Assembly (NCBI RefSeq): GCF_044647545.1
Contig: NZ_CP172818.1
DNA: 64,000 nucleotides
Source: Escherichia coli
GTDB lineage: Bacteria; Pseudomonadota; Gammaproteobacteria; Enterobacterales; Enterobacteriaceae
Direction: 5' to 3' (one strand)
Within the stretch, counting starts at the first letter, position 1. The number at the start of each line of letters is the position of its first letter. The notes below the pieces were generated by a model, which saw only the letters and a list, made by a program, of their open reading frames with translations, ran no database searches and was not told the DNA's origin. Positions 29,410 through 47,047 of this stretch are shown here, one piece after another. The translations under genes were made by a program, and so were the position numbers.

Positions 29410-30081
29410 TCAAAGAATCATTTTATGAATTACAAAGCCTTCACCCAGATCGCTATTGACCTGTTGCCCGCGAAATTGTGCAACTGCACGCAGGCGATCA
29501 TGACGCATATAATCGCGTCGTTCCTGGCTTTTATGTTTTTTTAATGCAGCAAGTTTGACTGTGAAATATTCTTCTTTAACGGATTCAAAAACCTGAGGCA
29601 TAAATGAAAGCCAGGTACTCGGGGTTTCGTAGCCGAGAATTTGTGGAATAGTTCGGCAGGCAACCATTGAGGCTTGATAGACTGCAAGATGATCCTGATG
29701 GCGGTCAGCATCATGCATGGTGTATACACGAATGATTTCTACATCAGACGGAATTTGATTTTTAATGATGTCTTCCAGGGCGGAAATCATATCATTGAGC
29801 TGTAAATGAGCGCGGGTGTCAGCAAAATTAAGATGAATAGTTTGGTGGCACCCTAATATCTTTAGGGCGTTGCGCGATTCTTCATGGCGATCGATTATTC
29901 CATCTGTGCCAGAGTTGCCGGTAGTCATCACCACGGCTGCGATATAAATTCCTTTTTGCGCAAGACGAGCAAGCGATGCGCCACAGCCTAATTCTATATC
30001 GTCAGGATGTGCGCCAATAGCAAGGATACCCTTTCTTTTATTTGCCGAAGAAAGGAGGGCTGAATCTAAAACCTTATCCAC
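29410..30081 (-). CDS. yaiS: PIG-L/LmbE-family deacetylase
   Basis: 223-aa ORF with AHPDDIELGCG motif near the N-terminus; a shorter 185-aa version (start at 29967) would lack this motif. Confidence 0.75.
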   Translation of the reverse strand: MDKVLDSALLSSANKRKGILAIGAHPDDIELGCGASLARLAQKGIYIAAVVMTTGNSGTDGIIDRHEESRNALKILGCHQTIHLNFADTRAHLQLNDMISALEDIIKNQIPSDVEIIRVYTMHDADRHQDHLAVYQASMVACRTIPQILGYETPSTWLSFMPQVFESVKEEYFTVKLAALKKHKSQERRDYMRHDRLRAVAQFRGQQVNSDLGEGFVIHKMIL

Positions 30082-30696
30082 TTAATGACACTCCATTTTA
30101 TTTATTATACTACAAGCACAACGATGCACTCAGAGACGTAATCTCTGGCGCAGCCAGATGCTAATTTATAAGTGTTAAATGTTGCTAATAATTGAAAAGC
30201 CAGGGCTTTCAGATCCGGGGGGGCGACTGGTTAATGTTTTTATGCAATTCATATGTTAAGTGTTTGTATGTTTGGTATGTATAGTTATTTTGTTTTATAC
30301 ATTGTATTTAGATGTGATTTAGTTTGTCAATTAATTGCATTTAAAAAATATGTTCTGTGAACAAGTATTGTTTATATACATTATGTGAATGTAATATGCG
30401 AGTGATTGAGAATGATACAGTGATATATATAATGCGAATATAATAGTTTTATTATATGTATTGATATTGATAGAAATAATGAAGTAATAAATCTCGTAAT
30501 GTGGTTGTTTATGCATCACTAAAATGAAGTGTAGTAATTTTCCCAATTGTTAGAACGGAGTAATTGCATATTTAATCTTTCCTTTGCCGTTTTTTTGCTA
30601 AGAATAAAATCATCTGTGCGATAACGACTAATTCTTTTAATGAATGTTTTTATTCCTGAATACTGCTCCCATAACAAGACAGGGGAGCAGACAATC

Positions 30697-31659
30697 ATGG
30701 CAATTTCATCGCGTAACACACTTCTTGCCGCACTGGCATTCATCGCTTTTCAGGCACAGGCGGTGAACGTCACCGTGGCGTATCAAACCTCAGCCGAACC
30801 GGCGAAAGTGGCTCAGGCCGACAACACCTTTGCTAAAGAAAGCGGAGCAACCGTGGACTGGCGTAAGTTTGACAGCGGAGCCAGCATCGTGCGGGCGCTG
30901 GCTTCAGGCGACGTGCAAATCGGCAACCTCGGTTCCAGCCCGTTAGCGGTTGCAACCAGCCAACAGGTGCCGATTGAAGTCTTCTTGCTGGCGTCAAAAC
31001 TGGGTAACTCCGAAGCGCTGGTGGTAAAGAAAACTATCAGTAAACCGGAAGACTTGATTGGTAAACGCATCGCCGTACCGTTTATCTCCACCACCCACTA
31101 CAGCCTGCTGGCGGCGCTGAAACACTGGGGTATTAAACCCGGGCAAGTGGAGATTGTGAACCTGCAGCCGCCCGCGATTATCGCCGCATGGCAGCGGGGA
31201 GACATTGATGGTGCTTATGTCTGGGCACCGGCGGTTAACGCCATGGAAAAAGATGGCAAGGTGCTGACCGATTCTGAACAGGTCGGGCAGTGGGGCGCGC
31301 CGACACTGGACGTCTGGGTCGTGCGGAAAGATTTTGCCGAGAAACATCCAGAGGTCGTGAAAGCGTTCGCCAAAAGCGCCATCGATGCTCAGCAACCGTA
31401 CATTGCTAACCCAGACGTGTGGCTGAAACAGCCGGAAAACATCAGCAAACTGGCGCGTTTAAGCGGCGTGCCTGAAGGTGACGTTCCGGGGCTGGTGAAG
31501 GGGAATACCTATCTGACGCAGCAGCAACAAACGGCAGAACTGACCGGACCGGTGAATAAAGCGATCATCGATACCGCGCAGTTTTTGAAAGATCAGGGCA
31601 AAGTCCCTGCCGTGGCGAATGATTACAGCCAGTACGTGACCTCGCGCTTCGTGCAATAA
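30697..31659 (+). CDS. tauA: taurine ABC transporter periplasmic binding protein
   Basis: 320 aa from ATG 30697 with signal peptide (MAISSRNTLLAALAFIAFQAQA). Confidence 0.9.
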   Translation: MAISSRNTLLAALAFIAFQAQAVNVTVAYQTSAEPAKVAQADNTFAKESGATVDWRKFDSGASIVRALASGDVQIGNLGSSPLAVATSQQVPIEVFLLASKLGNSEALVVKKTISKPEDLIGKRIAVPFISTTHYSLLAALKHWGIKPGQVEIVNLQPPAIIAAWQRGDIDGAYVWAPAVNAMEKDGKVLTDSEQVGQWGAPTLDVWVVRKDFAEKHPEVVKAFAKSAIDAQQPYIANPDVWLKQPENISKLARLSGVPEGDVPGLVKGNTYLTQQQQTAELTGPVNKAIIDTAQFLKDQGKVPAVANDYSQYVTSRFVQ

Positions 31660-34135: not shown

Positions 34136-35110
34136 TTAACGCAGAATCTTCTTCTCAGCCAAATCCAGCGCAAAGTAGCTGAAAATCAGATCCGCACCCG
34201 CACGCTTAATTGAACCTAAGCTTTCGAGCACGACTTTCTCTTCATCTATAGCACCCGCCAGCGCGGCGAACTTAATCATCGCGTACTCACCGCTCACCTG
34301 ATACGCGCCAATCGACAATTCAGTACGTTCACGCAGCTCACGCACGATGTCGAGGTACGCTCCAGCAGGTTTAACCATCAGGCAGTCTGCGCCCTGGGCT
34401 TCATCCAGCAGTGACTCACGAATCGCCTCACGACGGTTCATTGGGTTCATCTGATAGCTTTTGCGGTCGCCTTTTAATGCGCTTCCGGCAGCTTCACGGA
34501 ACGGGCCATAAAAGGAGGAGGCGAACTTGGTCGAATACGACATAATCGCCGTATCTTTAAAGCCCGCAGCGTCCAGCGCCTGGCGAATCGCTTGTACCTG
34601 GCCATCCATTGCGGCGGAAGGGGCGATGAAGTCTGCACCTGCAGCAGCTGCAACCACGGCCTGCTTGCCTAAATTTTCCAGGGTCGCGTCGTTGTCGACG
34701 CCATGCTCGCACAGCACACCGCAGTGACCGTGAGAAGTGTATTCACAGAAACAGGTGTCTGACATGACGATCATTTCTGGCACGGTCTGCTTGCAGATGC
34801 GCGACATACGCGCCACCAGACCATCTTCCCGCCAGGCATCGCTGCCGGTTTCATCGGTATGGTGAGAGATGCCGAAAGTCATCACGGAACGAATACCGGC
34901 GTTGGCGATGCGTTCAATTTCGCGTGCCAGATGTTTCTCTGGAATGCGCATCACGCCTGGCATGGCTTCAACGGCTTTGTAGTCGTCAATTTCTTCTTCA
35001 ACAAAGATCGGCAACACCAGGTCGTTAAGGCTAAGTGTTGTCTCTTCAAACATAGCGCGCAGCGCAGGAGATTTGCGCAGGCGACGAGGGCGTTGGATTA
35101 AGTCTGTCAT
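34136..35110 (-). CDS. hemB: porphobilinogen synthase (delta-aminolevulinate dehydratase)
   Basis: 324 aa from [24 protein letters not shown]...; active-site lysine region ([10 protein letters not shown]). Confidence 0.9.
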
Positions 35111-37124
35111 GGTCTGCCTGATGTTTGTGGAATCGAGGGGCATAGTATACCTGAAGCAGGGTGGGGATGTTTTACGAAAGTTGTCGCGATGTTGACAAGA
35201 AGAGAATGAATGAGAGGCCAGGACATCTTTGTAATAGAAATAGCAATAATTTCATATTCACTGAAAATATTTTTAATTTTTATTTATAGTCATGGATTAT
35301 TGTTTTTGGGGATTTGGTTGCGTTATCAAAAACGGAATGATTTAAAGTTCATTGGTTATTGATAGATTATTTGTCTGGTTTGTGTGTTTGATATTTTAAA
35401 TGCATATGCTTTAAAAATGGAAATCCTGTTAACTTGTTGAAACATTAAGCCTTTATCAATTTTTTCTTTGTGTGTTCCTCCGTGCTTTATATATGTCCGT
35501 AACCGGACTTCGGGGAAAGAATAATTGAACCATTCCTCAATAACGCCGCATAATCGTTAGCGCGAAACATAATATGTTTTCTATGCATTGATAATTGATG
35601 GATCAACTTATTACGTCCCTGAGGAGGGATGACAAATGCACTCCTGGAAAAAGAAACTTGTAGTATCACAATTAGCATTGGCTTGCACTCTGGCTATCAC
35701 CTCTCAGGCTAATGCAGCGACCTACTGATACCTGGACTTATATCGATAATCCCGTTACAGCACTTGATTGGGATCATATGGATAAGGCAGGCACTGTAGA
35801 TGGCAACTATGTAAACTATAGTGGTTTTGTCTATTACAACAACACCAATGGTGATTTCGATCAGTCCTTTAACGGCGATACCGTTAACGGCACGATCTCA
35901 ACCTATTATTTGAACCATGATTATGCAGACAGTACTGCTAATCAGCTTGATATCAGTAATTCAGTGATTCACGGTTCGATTACTTCTATGCTGCCTGGCG
36001 GTTATTATGATCGTTTTGATGCAGATGGTAATAATCTGGGTGGATATGATTTTTACACTGATGCGGTTGTTGATACACACTGGCGTGATGGTGATGTTTT
36101 CACTTTGAACATTGCTAACACTACTATTGATGATGATTATGAAGCTCTTTACTTCACTGATTCTTATAAAGATGGTGATGTAACCAAGCACACAAATGAG
36201 ACATTTGATACAAGTGAAGGCGTTGCTGTTAATCTTGATGTAGAAAGTAACATCAATATTTCCAATAACTCCCGCGTTGCAGGTATTGCATTATCTCAAG
36301 GTAATACTTACAACGAAACCTACACTACCGAATCTCATACTTGGGATAACAATATCTCTGTAAAAGATTCCACAGTGACTTCGGGTTCAAATTATATCCT
36401 GGATAGCAATACTTATGGCAAAACTGGTCACTTTGGCAATTCTGATGAACCGAGTGATTATGCTGGCCCGGGTGATGTTGCAATGTCCTTTACTGCTTCA
36501 GGTTCCGACTATGCGATGAAGAACAATGTATTCCTCAGCAATTCAACGCTGATGGGTGATGTTGCCTTTACCAGCACCTGGAATAGTAATTTTGATCCGA
36601 ATGGTCATGATTCCAACGGTGACGGGGTGAAAGATACCAACGGGGGTTGGACTGATGATAGCCTCAACGTTGATGAACTAAATCTCACTCTCGATAACGG
36701 AAGCAAGTGGGTTGGTCAGGCAATTTATAACGTTGCTGAAACGTCAGCAATGTATGATGTTGCTACAAACAGCCTTACTCCTGATGCAACATATGAAAAC
36801 AATGACTGGAAACGTGTTGTTGATGACAAGGTCTTCCAGAGCGGTGTATTTAACGTAGCGTTGAATAACGGTTCTGAATGGGATACTACAGGTCGTTCCA
36901 TCGTTGATACCTTGACAGTTAATAATGGTTCTCAGGTTAATGTTTCGGAATCTAAATTAACTTCAGATACTATCGATTTAACTAACGGTTCTTCGCTGAA
37001 CATTGGTGAAGATGGCTACGTTGATACCGATCATCTGACTATTAACTCCTACAGTACTGTTGCGTTGACCGAATCTACTGGGTGGGGGGCTGATTGATCC
37101 TACCCACGTAATATGGACACAGGC

Positions 37125-37991
37125 CTAAGCGAGGTTCTTGTTTTCAAATTGTTCCGGACTGAGGCCGCCACACCAACTGTGCCGCCGCCACCGATTGTAA
37201 TCACATTCGATATAATTAAACACCGTTGCCCGCATTATTTCCCGGCTGATAAAGTGTTCTCCATGGATACATTCCACTTTCAGCGAATGAAAGAAGCTTT
37301 CCACGCAGGCATTATCGTAGCAGCAACCTTTTGCGCTCATACTTCCACGCAGATTATGCCGCTTCAGTTGCGCCTGATAATCTGCTGAACAGTACTGGCC
37401 TCCACGGTCCGTGTGAACGATAACGTTCCGGGGCCTCTTACGCCGCCACAGCGCCATCTGCAGGGCATCGCAGGCCAGTTGCGCCGTCATGCGTGGCGAC
37501 ATTGACCAGCCAATAACGGCACGTGACCACAGGTCAATGACCACTGCCAGATACAGCCAGCCTTCATCTGTACGTAAGTACGTGATGTCTCCTGCCCACT
37601 TCTGGTTCGGGCCACTGGCGTAAAAATCCTGCTCCAACAGATTTTCTGACACAGGCAGGCCGTGTGCGCGGTAGCTGACCGGGCTGAACTTCCGGGAGGC
37701 CTTTGCCCTCAGTCCCTGACGGCGCAGGCTTGCCGCCACGGTTTTTACGTTAAAGGGGTAACCCTGAGCACGCAGTTCATCCGTCAGGCGTGGGGCACCG
37801 TAACGCTGTTTTGACCGGGTAAAAGCCGCGAGGACAACGCTGTCGCAGTGTTGGCGGAACTGCTGACGCGTGCTTATCCTTGTCCGCCGCTGACACCACG
37901 TATACCAGCCGCTGCGGGCCACCCGGAGCACGCGGCACATTGCTTTGATGCTGAACTCAGCCTGATGTTTTTCAATAAAGACATACTTCAT
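37125..37991 (-). CDS. insF: IS3 transposase OrfB (DDE integrase domain), expressed with OrfA by -1 frameshifting
   Basis: 288-aa ORF overlapping insE by 4 bp (ATGA); DDE/integrase-like translation. Confidence 0.9.
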
Positions 37992-38296
37992 TTCAGGCGC
38001 TTCGCGAAGTATGTCGCGGCCTTTTGGAGGATAGCCAGCTCTTCATCCCGTTCTGCCAGCTGGCGTTTGAGACGTGCAATCTCGGTAGACATCTCCAGTT
38101 CACGTTCAGAAGACGTCTGCTGATTTTGCTGTTTACTGCGCCAGTTGTAGAGTTGTGATTCATACAGGCTGAGTTCACGGGCTGCGGCAGTAACACCGAT
38201 GCGTTCAGCAAGCTTCAGGGCTTCACTGCGAAATTCAGGCGAATGCTGTTTACGGGGTTTTTTACTGGTTGATACTGTTTTTGTCATGTGAGTCAC
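37988..38296 (-). CDS. insE: IS3 transposase OrfA (HTH)
   Basis: 102-aa [58 protein letters not shown]... Confidence 0.9.
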
Positions 38297-39166
38297 CTCT
38301 GACTGAGAGTTTACTCACTTAGCCGCGTGTCCACTATTGCTGGGTAAGATCAGATTACAACCTGTACGCCAATACTATCACCGTAACTAACGGCGGTGTA
38401 TTGGATGTGAACGTTGATCAGTTCGATACTGAAGCTTTCCGTACTGACAAACTGGAACTGACCAGCGGCAACATCGCTGACCATAACGGTAACGTAGTAT
38501 CTGGTGTGTTCAATATCGAAAGCAACCGCTTCGTACTTGATGCCGACCTGACCAACGACCGTACCAACGATACTACCAAGTCAAACTACGGTTATGGTTT
38601 AATCGCAATGAACTCTGATGGTCACCTGACCATTAACGGTAACGGCGATAACGACAACACTGCTTCTATCGAAGCTGGTCAGAACGAAGTTGATAACAAC
38701 GGTGACCATGTTGCAGCTGCAACCGGTAACTACAAAGTTCGTATCGACAACGCTACTGGTGCTGGTTCTATCGCTGACTACAACGGCAACGAGCTGATCT
38801 ACGTTAACGACAAAAACAGCAACGCGACCTTCTCTGCTGCTAACAAAGCTGACCTGGGTGCATACACCTATCAGGCTGAACAGCGCGGTAACACCGTTGT
38901 TCTGCAACAGATGGAGCTGACCGACTACGCTAACATGGCGCTGAGCATCCCGTCTGCGAACACCAATATCTGGAACCTGGAACAAGACACCGTTGGTACT
39001 CGTCTGACCAACTCTCGTCATGGCCTGGCTGATAACGGCGGCGCATGGGTAAGCTACTTCGGTGGTAACTTCAACGGCGACAATGGCACCATCAACTATG
39101 ATCAGGATGTTAACGGCATCATGGTCGGTGTTGATACCAAAATTGACGGTAACAACGCTAAGTGGA

Positions 39167-39290
<124 letters not shown>

Positions 39291-39325
39291 CGGTAGCTTG
39301 AGCTACTCTCACTTCAACAACGACC

Positions 39326-39444
<119 letters not shown>

Positions 39445-39454
39445 TACGGCAGCG

Positions 39455-39498
<44 letters not shown>

Positions 39499-39499
39499 A

Positions 39500-39620
<121 letters not shown>

Positions 39621-39640
39621 TTACGACGACTCTAACAACC

Positions 39641-39834
<194 letters not shown>

Positions 39835-39848
39835 TGAAGAAATAGGTT

Positions 39849-40531
<683 letters not shown>

Positions 40532-41689
40532 TCAGGACGCGGGGATGACCAACGGTTTATTCCCGCTCAGTTCGGTCACCAGGTCATTGATGCCATCGCT
40601 CATATTTTTAAAGCGCGTCAATGGCGAACGAGTGACCACCACAAACGCGCCAATATTCTTCTGCGGGATCATCGCCATATAGGTAATGAAACCGCCACCA
40701 CCGCCTGTCTTCTGAATAATCCCTGGACGACCCTCTTTCGGGGCCATATATACCCAGCCTAAACCAAGCGCATCCGCTTTGCCGGGGACATCCATGCCAA
40801 TCACTTTCGTAAACTGCGCTCGCTGATAAATCAACGTCTGCATGCGATCAGCCTGGTTACTGCGCTGATAAAAATCAGATGACAAATACTGCTGCATCCA
40901 GCGCATCATATCGCCAGGCGTGGAATAGACGCCGCCGCTGCCAATTGCCGCCAGCGTGTTATTGCATGGACTGGCACCGCGCTCTGCCACCATTAAACGG
41001 CGGCACTGGTCCGGCGAGGGGGTGTAGGTGGTGTCTTTCATCCCCAATGGACGGGTAATCTGCTCTTCAAACAACTGGGTATAAGGCTTGCCGGAAGCAT
41101 TCGCCAGTGCATCTGCCAGCAGGTCGAACGCAAGGTTAGAGTATGCCGCCTGACTGCCTGGCGCGGCTTTCAGCTTCGCCGTAGAAAGGTATTTCCAGCG
41201 TTGCTCGCGCGTTGGCCAGACAAACACTGGACGATGTGCCGCACCTCCCGGCTGTTCACGGGGCAGGGCACTGGTATGGGTTGCTAGATTCACCAGGGTA
41301 ATAGGCGTGCCATTGTAAGTCGGCACACGTGCGCCTGGTGGAGCATATTTACTTAGCGGATCGTTTAACTTCACGGTCCCCTGGTCGAGCAATTTCACCA
41401 GCATCTCACTGGTCATTAGCTTGGTGAGGGAAGCAATACGCACTACCGAATCCAGCTGCGGGCGAACGTTATTACCAGGTCGCGTTTCGCCATAACTGCG
41501 AAAGACGCGCTGGTTACCGTCGATAACAACCAGCGCCATCCCCGTGGCACCGCTGCCGTAAAAAATATGATCGGCATAACGATCGACAATATCAGAGGCA
41601 AACTCCGGTTCAGTGATCGGCTGCGCCGCATGGACGGAGGTCAATGACGCCGCACACAGCACGGCAGAAAAAAGCAGACTACGTTTCAA
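40532..41689 (-). CDS. ampH: penicillin-binding protein / AmpC-like D-alanyl-D-alanine carboxypeptidase
   Basis: 385-aa ORF with signal peptide and SxxK motif (ASLTK). Confidence 0.9.
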   Translation of the reverse strand: MKRSLLFSAVLCAASLTSVHAAQPITEPEFASDIVDRYADHIFYGSGATGMALVVIDGNQRVFRSYGETRPGNNVRPQLDSVVRIASLTKLMTSEMLVKLLDQGTVKLNDPLSKYAPPGARVPTYNGTPITLVNLATHTSALPREQPGGAAHRPVFVWPTREQRWKYLSTAKLKAAPGSQAAYSNLAFDLLADALANASGKPYTQLFEEQITRPLGMKDTTYTPSPDQCRRLMVAERGASPCNNTLAAIGSGGVYSTPGDMMRWMQQYLSSDFYQRSNQADRMQTLIYQRAQFTKVIGMDVPGKADALGLGWVYMAPKEGRPGIIQKTGGGGGFITYMAMIPQKNIGAFVVVTRSPLTRFKNMSDGINDLVTELSGNKPLVIPAS

Positions 41690-42040
41690 CGGTGGTGTCC
41701 ATAAATTGAATGAAGGTAACTGAGCGTATTTATACTACTCATTGATGGATTGCAAAGGGCGAATTAGTGCAATAATAGTGTTAAAAACGTAACGGCGCGT
41801 AAACACGATCTTTTTCCTGCTCACCAATGCCTGCATTTGTGATCCTGCGCGTGTTAATCCGCTTATGTAAACAATCTTTGGTTTGTGAAATCCGTCGAAA
41901 CAATTCTTATGGTCAGGCTGGCGAACTAAGCGCCTTGCTATGGGTCACAATGGGCGGTTTCATTTGGCTGACGCTTTGTAGCGGTCATGCGGTTAATACA
42001 CAGCAGTTGTTAAAACGATAAGAAGTTAGCAGGAGTGCAT

Positions 42041-43261
42041 ATGTTTAAGTCTTTTTTCCCAAAGCCGGGAACGTTTTTTCTCTCGGCCTTTGTTTGGGCA
42101 TTGATTGCCGTTATCTTCTGGCAAGCCGGTGGGGGTGACTGGGTGGCGCGTATCACCGGCGCTTCCGGGCAGATCCCGATTAGCGCCGCGCGTTTCTGGT
42201 CGTTGGATTTCCTGATTTTTTACGCTTACTACATTGTTTGCGTAGGACTTTTTGCATTGTTCTGGTTTATCTACAGCCCGCATCGTTGGCAATACTGGTC
42301 AATACTCGGTACTGCACTGATCATCTTCGTCACCTGGTTTTTGGTGGAAGTCGGGGTCGCCGTCAACGCCTGGTATGCGCCGTTCTATGATCTGATTCAA
42401 ACCGCGCTAAGTTCGCCGCATAAAGTCACCATCGAACAATTTTACCGCGAAGTGGGCGTCTTTCTGGGGATTGCGCTGATCGCGGTAGTGATCAGTGTGC
42501 TGAACAACTTCTTTGTCAGTCACTACGTGTTCCGCTGGCGTACAGCGATGAACGAATATTACATGGCGAACTGGCAACAACTGCGTCATATCGAAGGTGC
42601 CGCCCAACGTGTGCAGGAAGACACCATGCGTTTTGCTTCAACGCTGGAGAATATGGGCGTCAGCTTTATCAACGCTATCATGACGTTGATCGCCTTCCTG
42701 CCGGTGCTGGTAACGCTCTCCGCACATGTGCCGGAGCTGCCGATTGTCGGGCACATTCCGTATGGTCTGGTGATTGCCGCTATCGTCTGGTCGCTGATGG
42801 GGACCGGATTACTGGCAGTGGTAGGGATCAAACTGCCGGGGCTGGAGTTTAAAAACCAGCGTGTAGAGGCTGCCTACCGTAAAGAGCTGGTTTATGGTGA
42901 AGACGATGCCACGCGCGCGACGCCGCCTACGGTACGCGAGCTTTTTAGCGCCGTACGGAAAAACTATTTCCGCCTCTATTTTCACTATATGTATTTCAAT
43001 ATCGCCCGCATTCTCTATTTGCAGGTCGATAACGTTTTCGGTTTGTTCTTGCTGTTTCCGTCAATTGTTGCCGGTACGATTACGCTCGGCCTGATGACGC
43101 AGATTACCAACGTTTTTGGTCAGGTTCGCGGAGCTTTCCAGTACCTGATTAACTCATGGACCACACTGGTTGAGTTGATGTCTATCTACAAACGTCTGCG
43201 CAGCTTTGAACATGAGCTGGATGGTGACAAAATTCAGGAAGTAACCCATACCTTGAGCTAA
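42041..43261 (+). CDS. sbmA: peptide antibiotic/antimicrobial peptide inner-membrane transporter
   Basis: 406 aa from [28 protein letters not shown]..., multi-TM. Confidence 0.9.
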
Positions 43262-43273
43262 AAAGGAGAAGTA

Positions 43274-44368
43274 ATGTCGCGCGTCAATCATCTATCTTCG
43301 CTGTCATTGTTGGCGGTTCTGGTTTTAGCGGGGTGTAGTAGTCAGGCTCCGCAACCGTTGAAAAAGGGCGAAAAAGCGATAGATGTGGCGAGCGTCGTGC
43401 GGCAGAAGATGCCTGCGAGCGTGAAAGACCGCGATGCCTGGGCGAAAGATCTCGCCACCACGTTTGAAAGTCAGGGGCTGGCACCGACGCTGGAAAACGT
43501 CTGCTCGGTGCTGGCGGTGGCGCAGCAGGAGTCAAATTATCAGGCAGATCCGGCCGTTCCGGGCTTAAGCAAGATCGCCTGGCAAGAGATTGACCGTCGT
43601 GCTGAACGGATGCACATTCCTGCTTTTCTGGTGCATACCGCGCTAAAAATCAAATCGCCAAACGGCAAAAGCTATAGCGAACGGTTAGATTCGGTGCGTA
43701 CTGAAAAGCAATTGAGCGCGATTTTTGACGATCTGATCAGCATGGTGCCAATGGGGCAGACGTTGTTTGGTTCGCTTAATCCGGTGCGCACCGGTGGGCC
43801 GATGCAGGTCAGCATTGCCTTTGCCGAACAGCATACCAAAGGGTATCCGTGGAAAATGGACGGTACAGTCCGTCAGGAAGTCTTCAGTCGTCGCGGCGGG
43901 TTGTGGTTTGGTACTTACCATTTACTGAATTATCCCGCCAGCTATAGCGCGCCGATATACCGTTTTGCTGATTTTAACGCTGGCTGGTACGCCAGCCGTA
44001 ATGCCGCGTTTCAGAACGCGGTCAGTAAGGTCAGCGGCGTGAAGCTGGCACTGGACGGTGATTTAATTCGTTACGACAGTAAAGAGCCCGGGAAAACCGA
44101 ACTGGCAACGCGCAAACTGGCGGGAAAACTGGGGATGAGCGACAGTGAAATTCGCCGCCAGTTAGAGAAAGGGGACAGCTTCTCTTTTGAGGAGACGGCG
44201 CTGTACAAGAAAGTTTATCAACTTGCCGAAGCGAAAACGGGTAAATCACTACCCCGCGAAATGTTGCCTGGCATTCAACTGGAAAGCCCGAAAATCACCC
44301 GCAACCTGACTACGGCCTGGTTTGCGAAGCGCGTAGACGAACGGCGGGCGCGTTGTATGAAACAGTGA
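43274..44368 (+). CDS. yaiW: surface-exposed outer-membrane lipoprotein
   Basis: 364-aa ORF with lipobox (VLAGCSSQ). Confidence 0.85.
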   Translation: MSRVNHLSSLSLLAVLVLAGCSSQAPQPLKKGEKAIDVASVVRQKMPASVKDRDAWAKDLATTFESQGLAPTLENVCSVLAVAQQESNYQADPAVPGLSKIAWQEIDRRAERMHIPAFLVHTALKIKSPNGKSYSERLDSVRTEKQLSAIFDDLISMVPMGQTLFGSLNPVRTGGPMQVSIAFAEQHTKGYPWKMDGTVRQEVFSRRGGLWFGTYHLLNYPASYSAPIYRFADFNAGWYASRNAAFQNAVSKVSGVKLALDGDLIRYDSKEPGKTELATRKLAGKLGMSDSEIRRQLEKGDSFSFEETALYKKVYQLAEAKTGKSLPREMLPGIQLESPKITRNLTTAWFAKRVDERRARCMKQ

Positions 44369-44425
44369 TCAAACAGGAATGTCATGCCAGATAAAGCGTT
44401 TTAGGTCCTATCTGGCAAGTAAATC

Positions 44426-44734
44426 TTACTGGCGGCGATGTCGCCAGTGCAGCCATAGCGCCACTACTGCAAAAATGAGGCAGCCAACTAAAAACGGGAT
44501 CAGCCCGAAAATGGTGCCGACACCTAAACCAATTTCCACCCGTGGGCGACCTGTTTCCTGGACCTGCATTAAGCGCTCATAGACGCCGGGCGCATGCACT
44601 AGCAGGTTCAGCAATTGCGCCCCAGCCCAAAAGCAAAACAGCACAAACAACGCATAGGCAATATTGCCAGGCGTTGAAGAGGCATTGCGATATTTTCCGC
44701 TAAACAGCGATTTTGACAGGGTGAAATCAGCCAT
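44426..44734 (-). CDS. yaiY: inner-membrane protein (DUF2755)
   Basis: 102-aa hydrophobic ORF. Confidence 0.75.
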
Positions 44735-44993
44735 AAAAACCTCCGGAAGTCATCTGCTTCTCTTCTGGTGTGATACCAGCGGCTTATGGCAAGTCTGACA
44801 GGTCATTTAGATTGTCAATATCAGAATCATGGTAAATTGATGTTGGGAATATTCCCGAAGCGTGAATCTTCGTTGTGAGTCACAAAATGGCAACCTTAAG
44901 TTAAATTTATTAACAAATGCGAAAGTGTTGTCTACCCCACAGACAGTTGTTACAGAATATGCAAAGATGTTGTTTTTCGTTAACGGAGCTGCC

Positions 44994-45206
44994 ATGAACT
45001 TGCCTGTAAAAATCCGCCGTGACTGGCACTACTATGCGTTCGCCATTGGCCTTATATTCATTCTTAATGGCGTGGTGGGGTTACTGGGATTTGAAGCAAA
45101 AGGTTGGCAGACCTATGCCGTCGGTCTGGTGACGTGGGTGATTAGTTTCTGGCTGGCGGGGTTGATTATTCGTCGTCGCGATGAAGAAACTGAAAACGCC
45201 CAATAA
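44994..45206 (+). CDS. yaiZ: small membrane protein (DUF2754)
   Basis: 70 aa from MNLPVKIRRDWHYYAFAIGLIFILNGVVGLLGF... Confidence 0.7.
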   Translation: MNLPVKIRRDWHYYAFAIGLIFILNGVVGLLGFEAKGWQTYAVGLVTWVISFWLAGLIIRRRDEETENAQ

Positions 45207-45229: not shown

Positions 45230-46324
45230 TTACATTGTGGTTTTCAGTGCGTTATCTGCAGCGTGACGCTCCAGCGCCAGCTCAATCAAACGCGTGATCA
45301 GGTCGGTGTAACCCAGACCGCTGGCTTGCCACAACTTCGGATACATACTGATGTTGGTGAAGCCAGGCAGGGTGTTGATCTCGTTGATCACCACTTCGTT
45401 CTCTGGGGTTAAAAACACGTCTACACGCGCCATGCCTGCGCATCCCAACGTTTGATAGGCCTGAACGGCAATCGCCCGGATCTTATCGTTGATTTCTGGC
45501 GCAATGGCTGCCGGAACAACCACTTTCGCGCCATCTTCGTCAATGTACTTGGTGTCGTAGGCATAAAAATCGCTGGTTAGTACGATCTCGCCACAGGTGC
45601 TGGCTTGCGGATTGTCGTTGCCCAGAACTGCGCATTCGATCTCACGACCTTTGATCCCTTGCTCAACGATCACTTTATGGTCGAACTCGAACGCCAGATC
45701 GACGGCAATTGCGTACTGTTCTTCACTGGTTACTTTGCTGACACCAACAGAAGAGCCCTGATTAGCCGGTTTTACAAACAGCGGTAACCCCAGTTTAGAC
45801 TCCACTTCGGCAAAACTGATGTTGTGACGATTAGCGCGCGTCAGGGTAATAAATGGCGCAATGTTCAGCCCGGCATCGCGCAGCAGACGTTTGGTGACAT
45901 CTTTATCCATACAGGCCGCTGAAGCCAGAACATCAGAACCTACAAACGGTAAATTGGCGACCCGCAGCATTCCCTGCAAGGAACCATCTTCGCCCAGCGT
46001 ACCGTGGACAATCGGGAAAATGACATCCACCGTCGGCAACGGCTGACCGTTTTGCGCGTCGATAAGCTGATGTTCATGTTTACCAGGCACCTGCGCAAGG
46101 CTGGTCGCCGAAGGGCGCAACGCAATATGGGCAGGATCGTCTGCATTTAGCAGATAATTGCTGGCATCGCTGACGTGCCATTGCCCTTGTTTATCAATGC
46201 CCAGCAGCACAACGTCGAAGCGACTTTTATCAATGGCATCGACAATGTTTTTTGCCGATTGCAGAGACACTTCATGTTCCGCTGATTTACCACCAAAAAC
46301 GATTCCTACCCGCAGTTTTTCCAT
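45230..46324 (-). CDS. ddlA: D-alanine--D-alanine ligase A
   Basis: 364-aa ATP-grasp ligase ([27 protein letters not shown]...). Confidence 0.95.
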
Positions 46325-46786
46325 CTTAAAAACCTATCCCGTCTAACACAAAGTGCATACATTACCACGACAAAACGGGGGATTCGCGGCCTTCTGACAG
46401 AATGTTGCAATCTTCTGCTGACAAAGCGTGCAACGTACTGGTGAAGAAAGTGCGTTATCTCAATGATGTGCGCAAGATCACAAAAATGATGAACGGGAAG
46501 CTAATTTATTCCTGGCTTGTATGGCCATGCAGTGAGTTTTTTTCTCTTAATTATAAGTTAACGAAGAGAATATATTTCATAACTTTTATTTATAATAAAG
46601 GTTGATAATTAAAAGCCTATATTTTGTGTGGGTAATTATTAAAATAAGAGAAACGTTTCGCTGGTAATCAAACAAAAAATATTTGCGCAAAGTATTTCCT
46701 TTGTCATAAAAATAATACTTCCAGACACTATGAAGTTGTGAAACATAATGTTAACTTCTCCATACTTTGGATAAGGAAATACAGAC

Positions 46787-47047
46787 ATGAAAAATCTCAT
46801 TGCTGAGTTGTTATTTAAGCTTGCCCAAAAAGAAGAAGAGTCGAAAGAACTGTGTGCGCAGGTAGAAGCTTTGGAGATTATCGTCACGGCAATGCTTCGC
46901 AATATGGCGCAAAATGATCAACAGCGGTTGATTGATCAGGTAGAGGGGGCGCTGTACGAGGTAAAGCCCGATGCCAGCATTCCTGACGACGATACGGAGC
47001 TGCTGCGCGATTACGTAAAGAAGTTATTGAGGCATCCTCGTCAGTAA
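46787..47047 (+). CDS. iraP: anti-adaptor protein stabilising RpoS
   Basis: 86-aa [33 protein letters not shown]... Confidence 0.85.

Follow-up and report, generated by a model that had tools for sequence, protein, structure and literature searches.

The intergenic region between the divergent genes yaiS and tauA of Escherichia coli very likely consists of two parts: an AT-rich islet core that is coated by H-NS and contains the yaiS promoter, and a separate, conserved tauA promoter. The region lies within a stretch of 64 kb that is further called the window and to which positions refer unless another sequence record is named.

According to the mechanism that we propose, the core (about 30235-30543) would be xenogeneic-type DNA and form part of the yaiO-yaiX-yaiP-yaiS islet, which was acquired horizontally. 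With its extreme content of AT and of TpA steps, the core would provide a platform for the nucleation and spreading of H-NS, and the same composition would give rise to a dense population of -10- and -35-like hexamers that attract RNA polymerase, which would explain why the core has been catalogued as a promoter island. Among these sites, a single one would be a real, strong sigma-70 promoter, namely the minus-strand combination TTGACA-18-TACAAT that drives transcription to yaiS, and its activity would be damped by H-NS through motifs near the -35 box and in the promoter spacer. The other promoter-like sites would be by-products of composition. The right-hand 137 bp would constitute the tauABCD promoter, controlled by sulfate starvation through Cbl and CysB and independent of the core.

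Genomic Context

The intergenic region, as delimited by open reading frames, annotation and composition, extends from 30082 to 30696 (615 bp, without assigned strand). It is bounded by the GTG start codon of yaiS at 30081 on the minus strand, encoding a PIG-L family deacetylase, and by the ATG of tauA at 30697 on the plus strand. A preliminary description of this DNA had placed the region between divergent operons, which is confirmed by the open reading frames and the annotation. The K-12 counterpart is found at 384617-385231 of NC_000913.3. With positions 30082-30697 as a query (616 bases), a match is obtained in 4,824 of the 5,426 complete E. coli genomes; the identity is 100% to FDAARGOS_497 and 97.9% to K-12 derivatives. 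Neither the K-12 record NC_000913.3 nor that of FDAARGOS_497, in which the spacer is identical, contains an annotated gene or feature within the spacer.

Some differences between strains are situated in the neighbouring genes. In the window, yaiS is an intact open reading frame of 223 amino acids (29410-30081, minus strand). The K-12 protein stops at 185 residues, 184 of which are the same as in the window protein, and the full PIG-L domain (residues 20-141) is present in both. PGAP describes yaiS as a pseudogene with a "missing C-terminus" in several strains, including FDAARGOS_497. Antisense to the 3' part of yaiS lies an open reading frame of 39 amino acids (29425-29544, plus strand), which is the counterpart of YkiC, a protein validated in K-12, and which differs from it by one substitution (S15P). 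Further downstream (about 35700-45200), gene positions are shifted: ddlA is located at 45230-46324 versus approximately 44076-45170 as predicted from the FDAARGOS_497 record. The segment from hemB/ehaB to ddlA is therefore longer in the window by about 1.15 kb, and the window does not stem from exactly that strain.

Base Composition and Predicted Shape

The AT-richness over some 600 bp that had been described for this region holds. The spacer has a GC content of 30.4%, versus 52% for the window, and the lowest value of any 300-bp segment in the entire 64 kb (23.0%, at 30231-30530) falls in the core. Such segments are rare, as only 0.19% of the 300-bp segments in the window have a GC content of 26% or less. 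The core itself (30235-30543, without assigned strand), which equals the promoter island at 383994-384302 of U00096.2, has 23.6% GC and 14.6 TpA steps per 100 bp, versus 4.3 in the window, which is a 3.4-fold density. Both AT and TpA content are thus well above average, as is typical of H-NS-silenced DNA.

The DNA had also been called curved, a claim that is contradicted by two approaches, a curvature profile and a test of periodicity. In a wedge model, with the parameters of Bolshoy et al. 1991, the core reaches 5.0 degrees per helical turn, corresponding to the 10th percentile of the window and hence below average; the controls behaved as expected, as phased A-tracts gave 24.4 degrees per turn and unphased or random sequences 2.4-4.5. 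A periodicity of AA/TT steps in the range of 10-11.5 bp is absent from the core (p = 0.99). The high-affinity motif for H-NS nucleation, TCGATAAATT, which reportedly stems from work by Lang et al. in 2007, does not occur in the core with one mismatch or less. The best similar site has 8 of the 10 positions (2 mismatches, at 30327), and this single match compares to about 2 in shuffled sequences. A TCGATAAATT-like motif is not obligatory for H-NS binding.

Other elements of the preliminary description disappear when composition is taken into account, with 1,000 dinucleotide-preserving shuffles serving as null model for both motifs and complexity. The motifs tgtatg, atgtga and aatgcga, presented as repeated, are found 1, 2 and 1 times, respectively, on the plus strand, without a meaningful excess over the shuffles (0.63, 0.51 and 0.05; p = 0.49, 0.09 and 0.05). 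Nor is the sequence of low complexity beyond what its composition entails: zlib compresses it to the same degree as the shuffles (z = -0.5), and the diversity of 5-mers is only slightly lower (z = -2.7).

The two strands of the core are markedly asymmetric. The plus strand contains 55 G and 18 C residues (GC skew +0.51) and 135 T and 101 A residues. This asymmetry is kept in both haplotypes of E. coli and in K-12 (GC skew 0.40-0.46), and its direction is that of the genome-wide leading-strand bias, although it is about 10 times stronger. RNA transcribed from the minus strand of the core would contain more C than G (approximately 3:1) and be nearly unstructured (-3 to -8 kcal/mol per 100 nt), and such RNA might load Rho.

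To the left of the core and overlapping its edge, the segment 30150-30249 is the most variable of the spacer (73-86% identity, K-12 included). A run of G residues, GGGGGGG, is found here at 30217-30223, where K-12 has GTGGGTT, as well as a weak hairpin, AAAGCC-AG-GGCTTT, at 30196-30209, the pairing of which is broken by a substitution in K-12. A tRNA remnant or attachment site was rejected; near 30215, K-12 has a string similar to GGGTTCGAC, but it forms no T-arm.

The Core as a Promoter Island Bound by H-NS

Earlier work on promoter islands in E. coli is said to have been published by Shavkunov in 2009. In the catalogue of Panyukov and Ozoline (PMC3661553), which comprises 78 regions of K-12 MG1655, each 300 bp or longer, in which PlatProm predicts transcription start points at an extreme density, the island 383994_309 is listed between yaiS(-) and tauA(+) at 383994-384302 of U00096.2 (Table 1 and Table S1). 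It has the H-NS code "A", that is, bound in all ChIP sets (Grainger, Kahramanoglou and Oshima), and it adjoins foreign genes as predicted in three data sets (columns C-E all positive; PMC3661553). An offset of 776 bp between U00096.2 and NC_000913.3 places the island at 30235-30543 of the window. This offset is corroborated by a SELEX peak at 383958, a coordinate that falls between genes only in the numbering of version 2. The island mapped in this way almost coincides with the GC minimum at 30231-30530, and the core of the window is 99.0% identical to that of K-12. Of the attributes of a promoter island, the region has the following: it is catalogued, its density of promoter-like sites is far above background, and it is tied to horizontally acquired genes.

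Binding of RNA polymerase is also documented. In the genomic SELEX of Shimada et al. (PMC3946193), a peak for the RpoD holoenzyme is situated in the spacer, with a flag for H-NS. The hexamer pairs given for it are TTGACA-18-TACAAT to yaiS and TTGAGA-16-TACAAT to tauA (PMC3946193), and our scan of the window recovers both sites. Promoter islands as a class are described as binding RNA polymerase with little full-length transcript. On the basis of published K-12 data (PMC3661553, PMC3946193, PMC11661796), it can be stated that H-NS-type silencer DNA with promoter-like hexamers does exist between these divergent operons, as the preliminary description had proposed. That description overlooked the single mapped promoter for yaiS and the fact that the regulatory DNA of tauA forms a separate, conserved block at the right-hand end. 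For the K-12 allele, the occupancy by H-NS, the binding of RNA polymerase, the activity of the minus-strand promoter and its repression by H-NS on a plasmid have been demonstrated in the literature. These K-12 results probably transfer to the strain of the window.

A Promoter Facing yaiS and a Promoter-Like Site Facing tauA

A segment of 150 bp in the core (30291-30440, without assigned strand) corresponds to P12, one of the templates mutagenised by Fuqua, Sun and Wagner (eLife 2024, PMC11661796) in its K-12 allele; the sequence in the supplement matches our stretch. The window differs from this allele at 30366 (T versus C) and at 30430 (T versus C).

The sigma-70 promoter to yaiS occupies 30301-30330 on the minus strand and consists of TTGACA (30330-30325) and TACAAT (30306-30301), separated by 18 nt, with 11 of the 12 consensus positions. 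The bottom strand of P12, which faces yaiS and was read out with RFP, is an active promoter (PMC11661796). Its -35 and -10 boxes were located with the help of about 5,900 mutants; when they were scrambled, fluorescence dropped 63-fold and 50-fold (PMC11661796). Mutational hotspots lie at positions 7-17 and 33-39 of P12, equivalent to 30301-30306 and 30325-30330 of the window, respectively. On the plasmid, this promoter is about 100 times above background. The yaiS-facing hexamers are the same in all four aligned E. coli alleles, one of which has a single change in the spacer of the promoter (locus L007). The promoter mapped in P12 is probably the native promoter of the yaiS operon; as judged from the position of its boxes, transcription of yaiS would start near 30294, with a leader of about 213 nt.

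This promoter is repressed by H-NS to a limited extent. Deletion of hns raises P12-RFP expression by about 0.5-fold on a plasmid (p = 4.3e-10; PMC11661796), with RFP/OD values of approximately 440-600 in DH5-alpha and approximately 790 in the delta-hns strain (PMC11661796). Derepression on the plasmid is hence modest, about 1.5- to 1.8-fold. An H-NS motif lies directly upstream of the -35 box, at 30331-30343 on the minus strand (P12 positions 40-52 in the source data; the mapping is approximate), and P12-RFP expression goes up when this motif is lost (+0.53 a.u.; PMC11661796). In view of the modest effect on the plasmid, a strong silencing of yaiS in the chromosome is an assumption.

Within the leader, the proximal part (30082-30181, minus strand) contains a hairpin, CAGAG-ACGTAAT-CTCTG, at 30131-30147 and the ribosome-binding site. 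Here, and nowhere else in the spacer, RNA structure is somewhat in excess (fold z-scores of -2.7 on the minus and -2.1 on the plus strand), and positions 30082-30124 are nearly invariant across the aligned alleles.

The promoter-like site to tauA (30406-30433, plus strand; TTGAGA-16-TATAAT, 11 of 12 consensus positions) emerges from the scan, the SELEX table and the alleles. Its -10 hexamer at 30428-30433 differs from allele to allele, being TATAAT in the window, TACAAT in K-12 and TGCAAT in the haplotype that is further referred to as B. The K-12 TACAAT allele was assayed with GFP on the strand of P12 toward tauA; GFP/OD was at background, and the construct is absent among the active parents (PMC11661796). 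No hotspots for P12-GFP are given in the portion of the eLife source data that covers promoter-active parents, so that their absence from that table is weak evidence on whether a change from TACAAT to TATAAT would activate the tauA-facing strand.

It is quite unlikely that the TATAAT allele represents a new tauA-facing promoter in the strain of the window or, alternatively, that the core has been selected as a two-way insulator, two ideas prompted by sequence features. The former would amount to a constitutive promoter directed to tauA from 265 bp upstream of this gene. The latter would imply a selection on strand-asymmetric composition rather than on sequence, with H-NS and Rho together silencing the islet and shielding the tauA promoter.

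Density of Promoter-Like Sites

The presence of multiple promoter-like hexamers had been taken as a further characteristic of the region. As a count this is correct, since a position weight matrix yields 20-21 matches per 300 bp in the core versus a mean of 3.7 (SD 3.6) in the window, with both strands considered. As an excess beyond base composition it is not: the core contains 19 such sites versus 29 +/- 5 in dinucleotide shuffles, and a separate scan for consensus promoters yields 3 sites versus 3.4 expected. The high count is thus fully explained by base composition. A clustering of promoters brought about by selection is rejected, as composition-matched shuffles produce an equal or higher number of sites.

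The window contains other AT-rich troughs, between hemB and ehaB (35089-35687, with a minimum of 28% GC) and between ddlA and iraP (46369-46926, with a minimum of 26.7%). They harbour 25 and 27 matrix matches per 300 bp, respectively, both more than the yaiS/tauA core, and both are absent from the published list of 78 promoter islands.

Linkage to the yaiS Islet and Pattern of Conservation

Comparison of composition and gene order among strains provides direct observations on the origin of the core. A scan of contigs across species with one tauA-proximal 22-mer returned two loci, from E. albertii and from an O157-like E. coli. In E. albertii, frmR is found directly beside tauA, and the spacer of about 290 bp has no AT-rich trough (GC at least 35%). 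In O157:H7 and in the locus L010, the region upstream of tauA is taken by a two-component system and an uhpC-like cluster, again with no trough. The yaiO-yaiX-yaiP-yaiS islet occurs together with the AT-rich core in K-12 and in the window, and both islet and core are missing in E. albertii and O157. In BL21, an IS1-associated deletion up to 30587 took yaiX-yaiS along with the core, while tauABCD was retained. Together, the patterns in BL21, O157 and E. albertii indicate that the core moves as part of the yaiS islet and that tauABCD can be retained without it.

Insertion sequences have affected this DNA in more than one strain. In BL21-AI (L003, 3250-4110), just 110 bp upstream of tauA are left. 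In TL012 (L008), an IS1 element resides within the core, with a 9-bp target duplication, TTGATATTG, at 30461-30469. TL012 and BL21 suggest that the core is a hotspot for IS1. A phage or mobile-element remnant as source of the core was discarded: a sensitive blastn search gave no phage relatives, and all matching records labelled "plasmid" are in fact E. coli chromosomes (1.2-4.9 Mb).

The E. coli genomes fall into two haplotype classes: in one, with approximately 3,800 genomes, the identity is 95% or higher, and in the other, with approximately 1,040, it is 80-90%. Between haplotypes, the core shows 84-85% identity and 10-11 indel positions; at fourfold-degenerate sites, the flanking genes diverge by 10-12%. 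Given that the two divergences are about the same, the core seems to evolve at an approximately neutral rate. The conservation is not uniform: a block of 96 bp with the yaiS-facing promoter (30250-30345) is 92-96% identical, versus 68-84% for the rest of the core.

These observations bear on the possibility that the core is passive, unconstrained AT-rich DNA left over from the transfer, bound by H-NS and RNA polymerase on account of its composition and under no selection. Several elements would be in accordance with it. The divergence of the haplotypes equals or exceeds that of synonymous sites and includes many indels, the density of promoter-like sites is slightly below that of composition-matched shuffles, and the tgtatg, atgtga and aatgcga motifs are not enriched. 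Moreover, insertion of IS1 into the core (TL012) and its total loss (BL21) are tolerated, and O157 and E. albertii do without it. Nevertheless, such a view is unlikely to be right for the core as a whole, as the block 30250-30345 is clearly better conserved than its surroundings and contains a near-consensus promoter that works in reporters. In addition, the GC content of 23-24% is kept in both haplotypes, though this could be simple inheritance. An H-NS-coated islet core with a functional yaiS promoter is more in line with these data.

Small RNA and Small Protein Candidates

The preliminary description had raised the option that the region hides a small RNA, and this was not borne out by searches with Rfam and ARAGORN, a scan for terminators, fold z-scores and the near-neutral divergence. 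Rfam gives no matches in the spacer at E-values up to 10, ARAGORN detects no tRNA or tmRNA, and the number of terminator-like sites in the spacer is 0. In sliding windows over both strands, the fold z-scores of the core are about 0 (-1.6 to +1.1). The statement that there is no convincing open reading frame stands, since only short ones are present (30-74 amino acids). Among these, a hydrophobic one of 35 amino acids (30253-30360, plus strand) is not preceded by a Shine-Dalgarno sequence and is shorter by 5 codons at its end in haplotype B, and for both reasons it was rejected as a convincing candidate for a small protein.

A gene for a small RNA or a small protein in the core is therefore exceedingly unlikely. 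It could be argued that the 35-amino-acid frame overlaps the best-conserved block of the core and that strong promoter-like sites are present on both strands. However, the missing Rfam match and terminator, the unremarkable folding and the weaknesses of the frame itself speak against it, and hydrophobic open reading frames are expected by chance from T-rich DNA. Furthermore, this part of NC_000913.3 is unannotated despite surveys for small proteins that found the neighbouring ykiC.

The tauA Promoter Block

The second part of the spacer (30560-30696, plus strand) comprises the tauA promoter, its regulatory region and the 5' leader, with a Shine-Dalgarno sequence, GGGGAG, at about 30683-30688. 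Among E. coli haplotypes its identity is 97% or more, and it is presumed to be a target of Cbl and CysB. The tauABCD promoter is reportedly activated by Cbl/CysB, according to work by van der Ploeg et al. in 1997. A Cbl site that reportedly lies at -112 to -68 would fit the start of the block at 30560 if the tauA start site is near 30672. With such a location, the Cbl site would be truncated in BL21, and the induction by taurine as a sulfur source might be impaired in this strain.

Given its position upstream of tauA, the core could be imagined to be an extension of the tauABCD control region, with far-upstream sites for CysB, Cbl or other proteins, or an architectural element. CysB binds multiple sites at promoters of the cys regulon, which would be in favour of such a role, as would the near-consensus promoter-like site facing tauA at 30406-30433. 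Yet this explanation seems very improbable, since E. albertii, O157:H7, L010 and BL21 have an intact tauABCD without the core, conservation on the tauA side ends at about 30560, and the tauA-facing strand of P12 is silent in reporters. The separation into an islet core and an independent tauA promoter is retained.

The tauA promoter exists in two types. In O157, E. albertii and L010, the tauA-proximal sequence is of a second type that is strongly diverged, being roughly half identical to that of K-12 and the window (30587-30659 of the window compared to 3860-4000 of L004, 1350-1437 of L009, and L010). Only short motifs, TTGCCGnTTTTTTnCTAA and TAATTCnTTTA, are common to both types. At 30659, 38 bp upstream of the tauA ATG, the identity jumps to 100%; from the alignment, this switch looks like an old recombination breakpoint, and the distribution of the types suggests that the yaiS islet may have arrived together with a foreign tauA promoter.

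Comparison with Known Systems

The locus is real, ordinary and already known, as it is a catalogued promoter island of which 150 bp have been mutagenised at single-base resolution. What is added is context: the excess of promoter-like sites is due to composition, no curvature is predicted, and the core travels with yaiOXPS and not with tauA. In terms of conservation, one real promoter, which faces yaiS, and the control region of tauA stand out against some 200 bp of AT-rich filler that is close to neutral. For the reading of other promoter islands these results serve as a caution; they open no new question.

The yaiS/tauA core is itself one of the promoter islands, its K-12 orthologue being intergenic, H-NS-bound and next to foreign genes. 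While the class is described as transcriptionally defective, one promoter of this island shows strong activity on a plasmid, and the island's excess of sites in a simple weight matrix is no larger than what base composition predicts. In comparison to xenogeneic silencing (Navarre, Oshima, Grainger), the core is likewise rich in AT and TpA and located on an islet that varies between strains, and in K-12 it is likewise positive for H-NS in ChIP and derepressed in a delta-hns background. It differs by a derepression of only about 1.5-fold on the plasmid and by having neither a close copy of the nucleation motif nor predicted curvature. Finally, the segment 30560-30696 is the conserved block of the tauABCD promoter that responds to Cbl and CysB, with short motifs in common with the second promoter type, and it is an element distinct from the AT-rich core.
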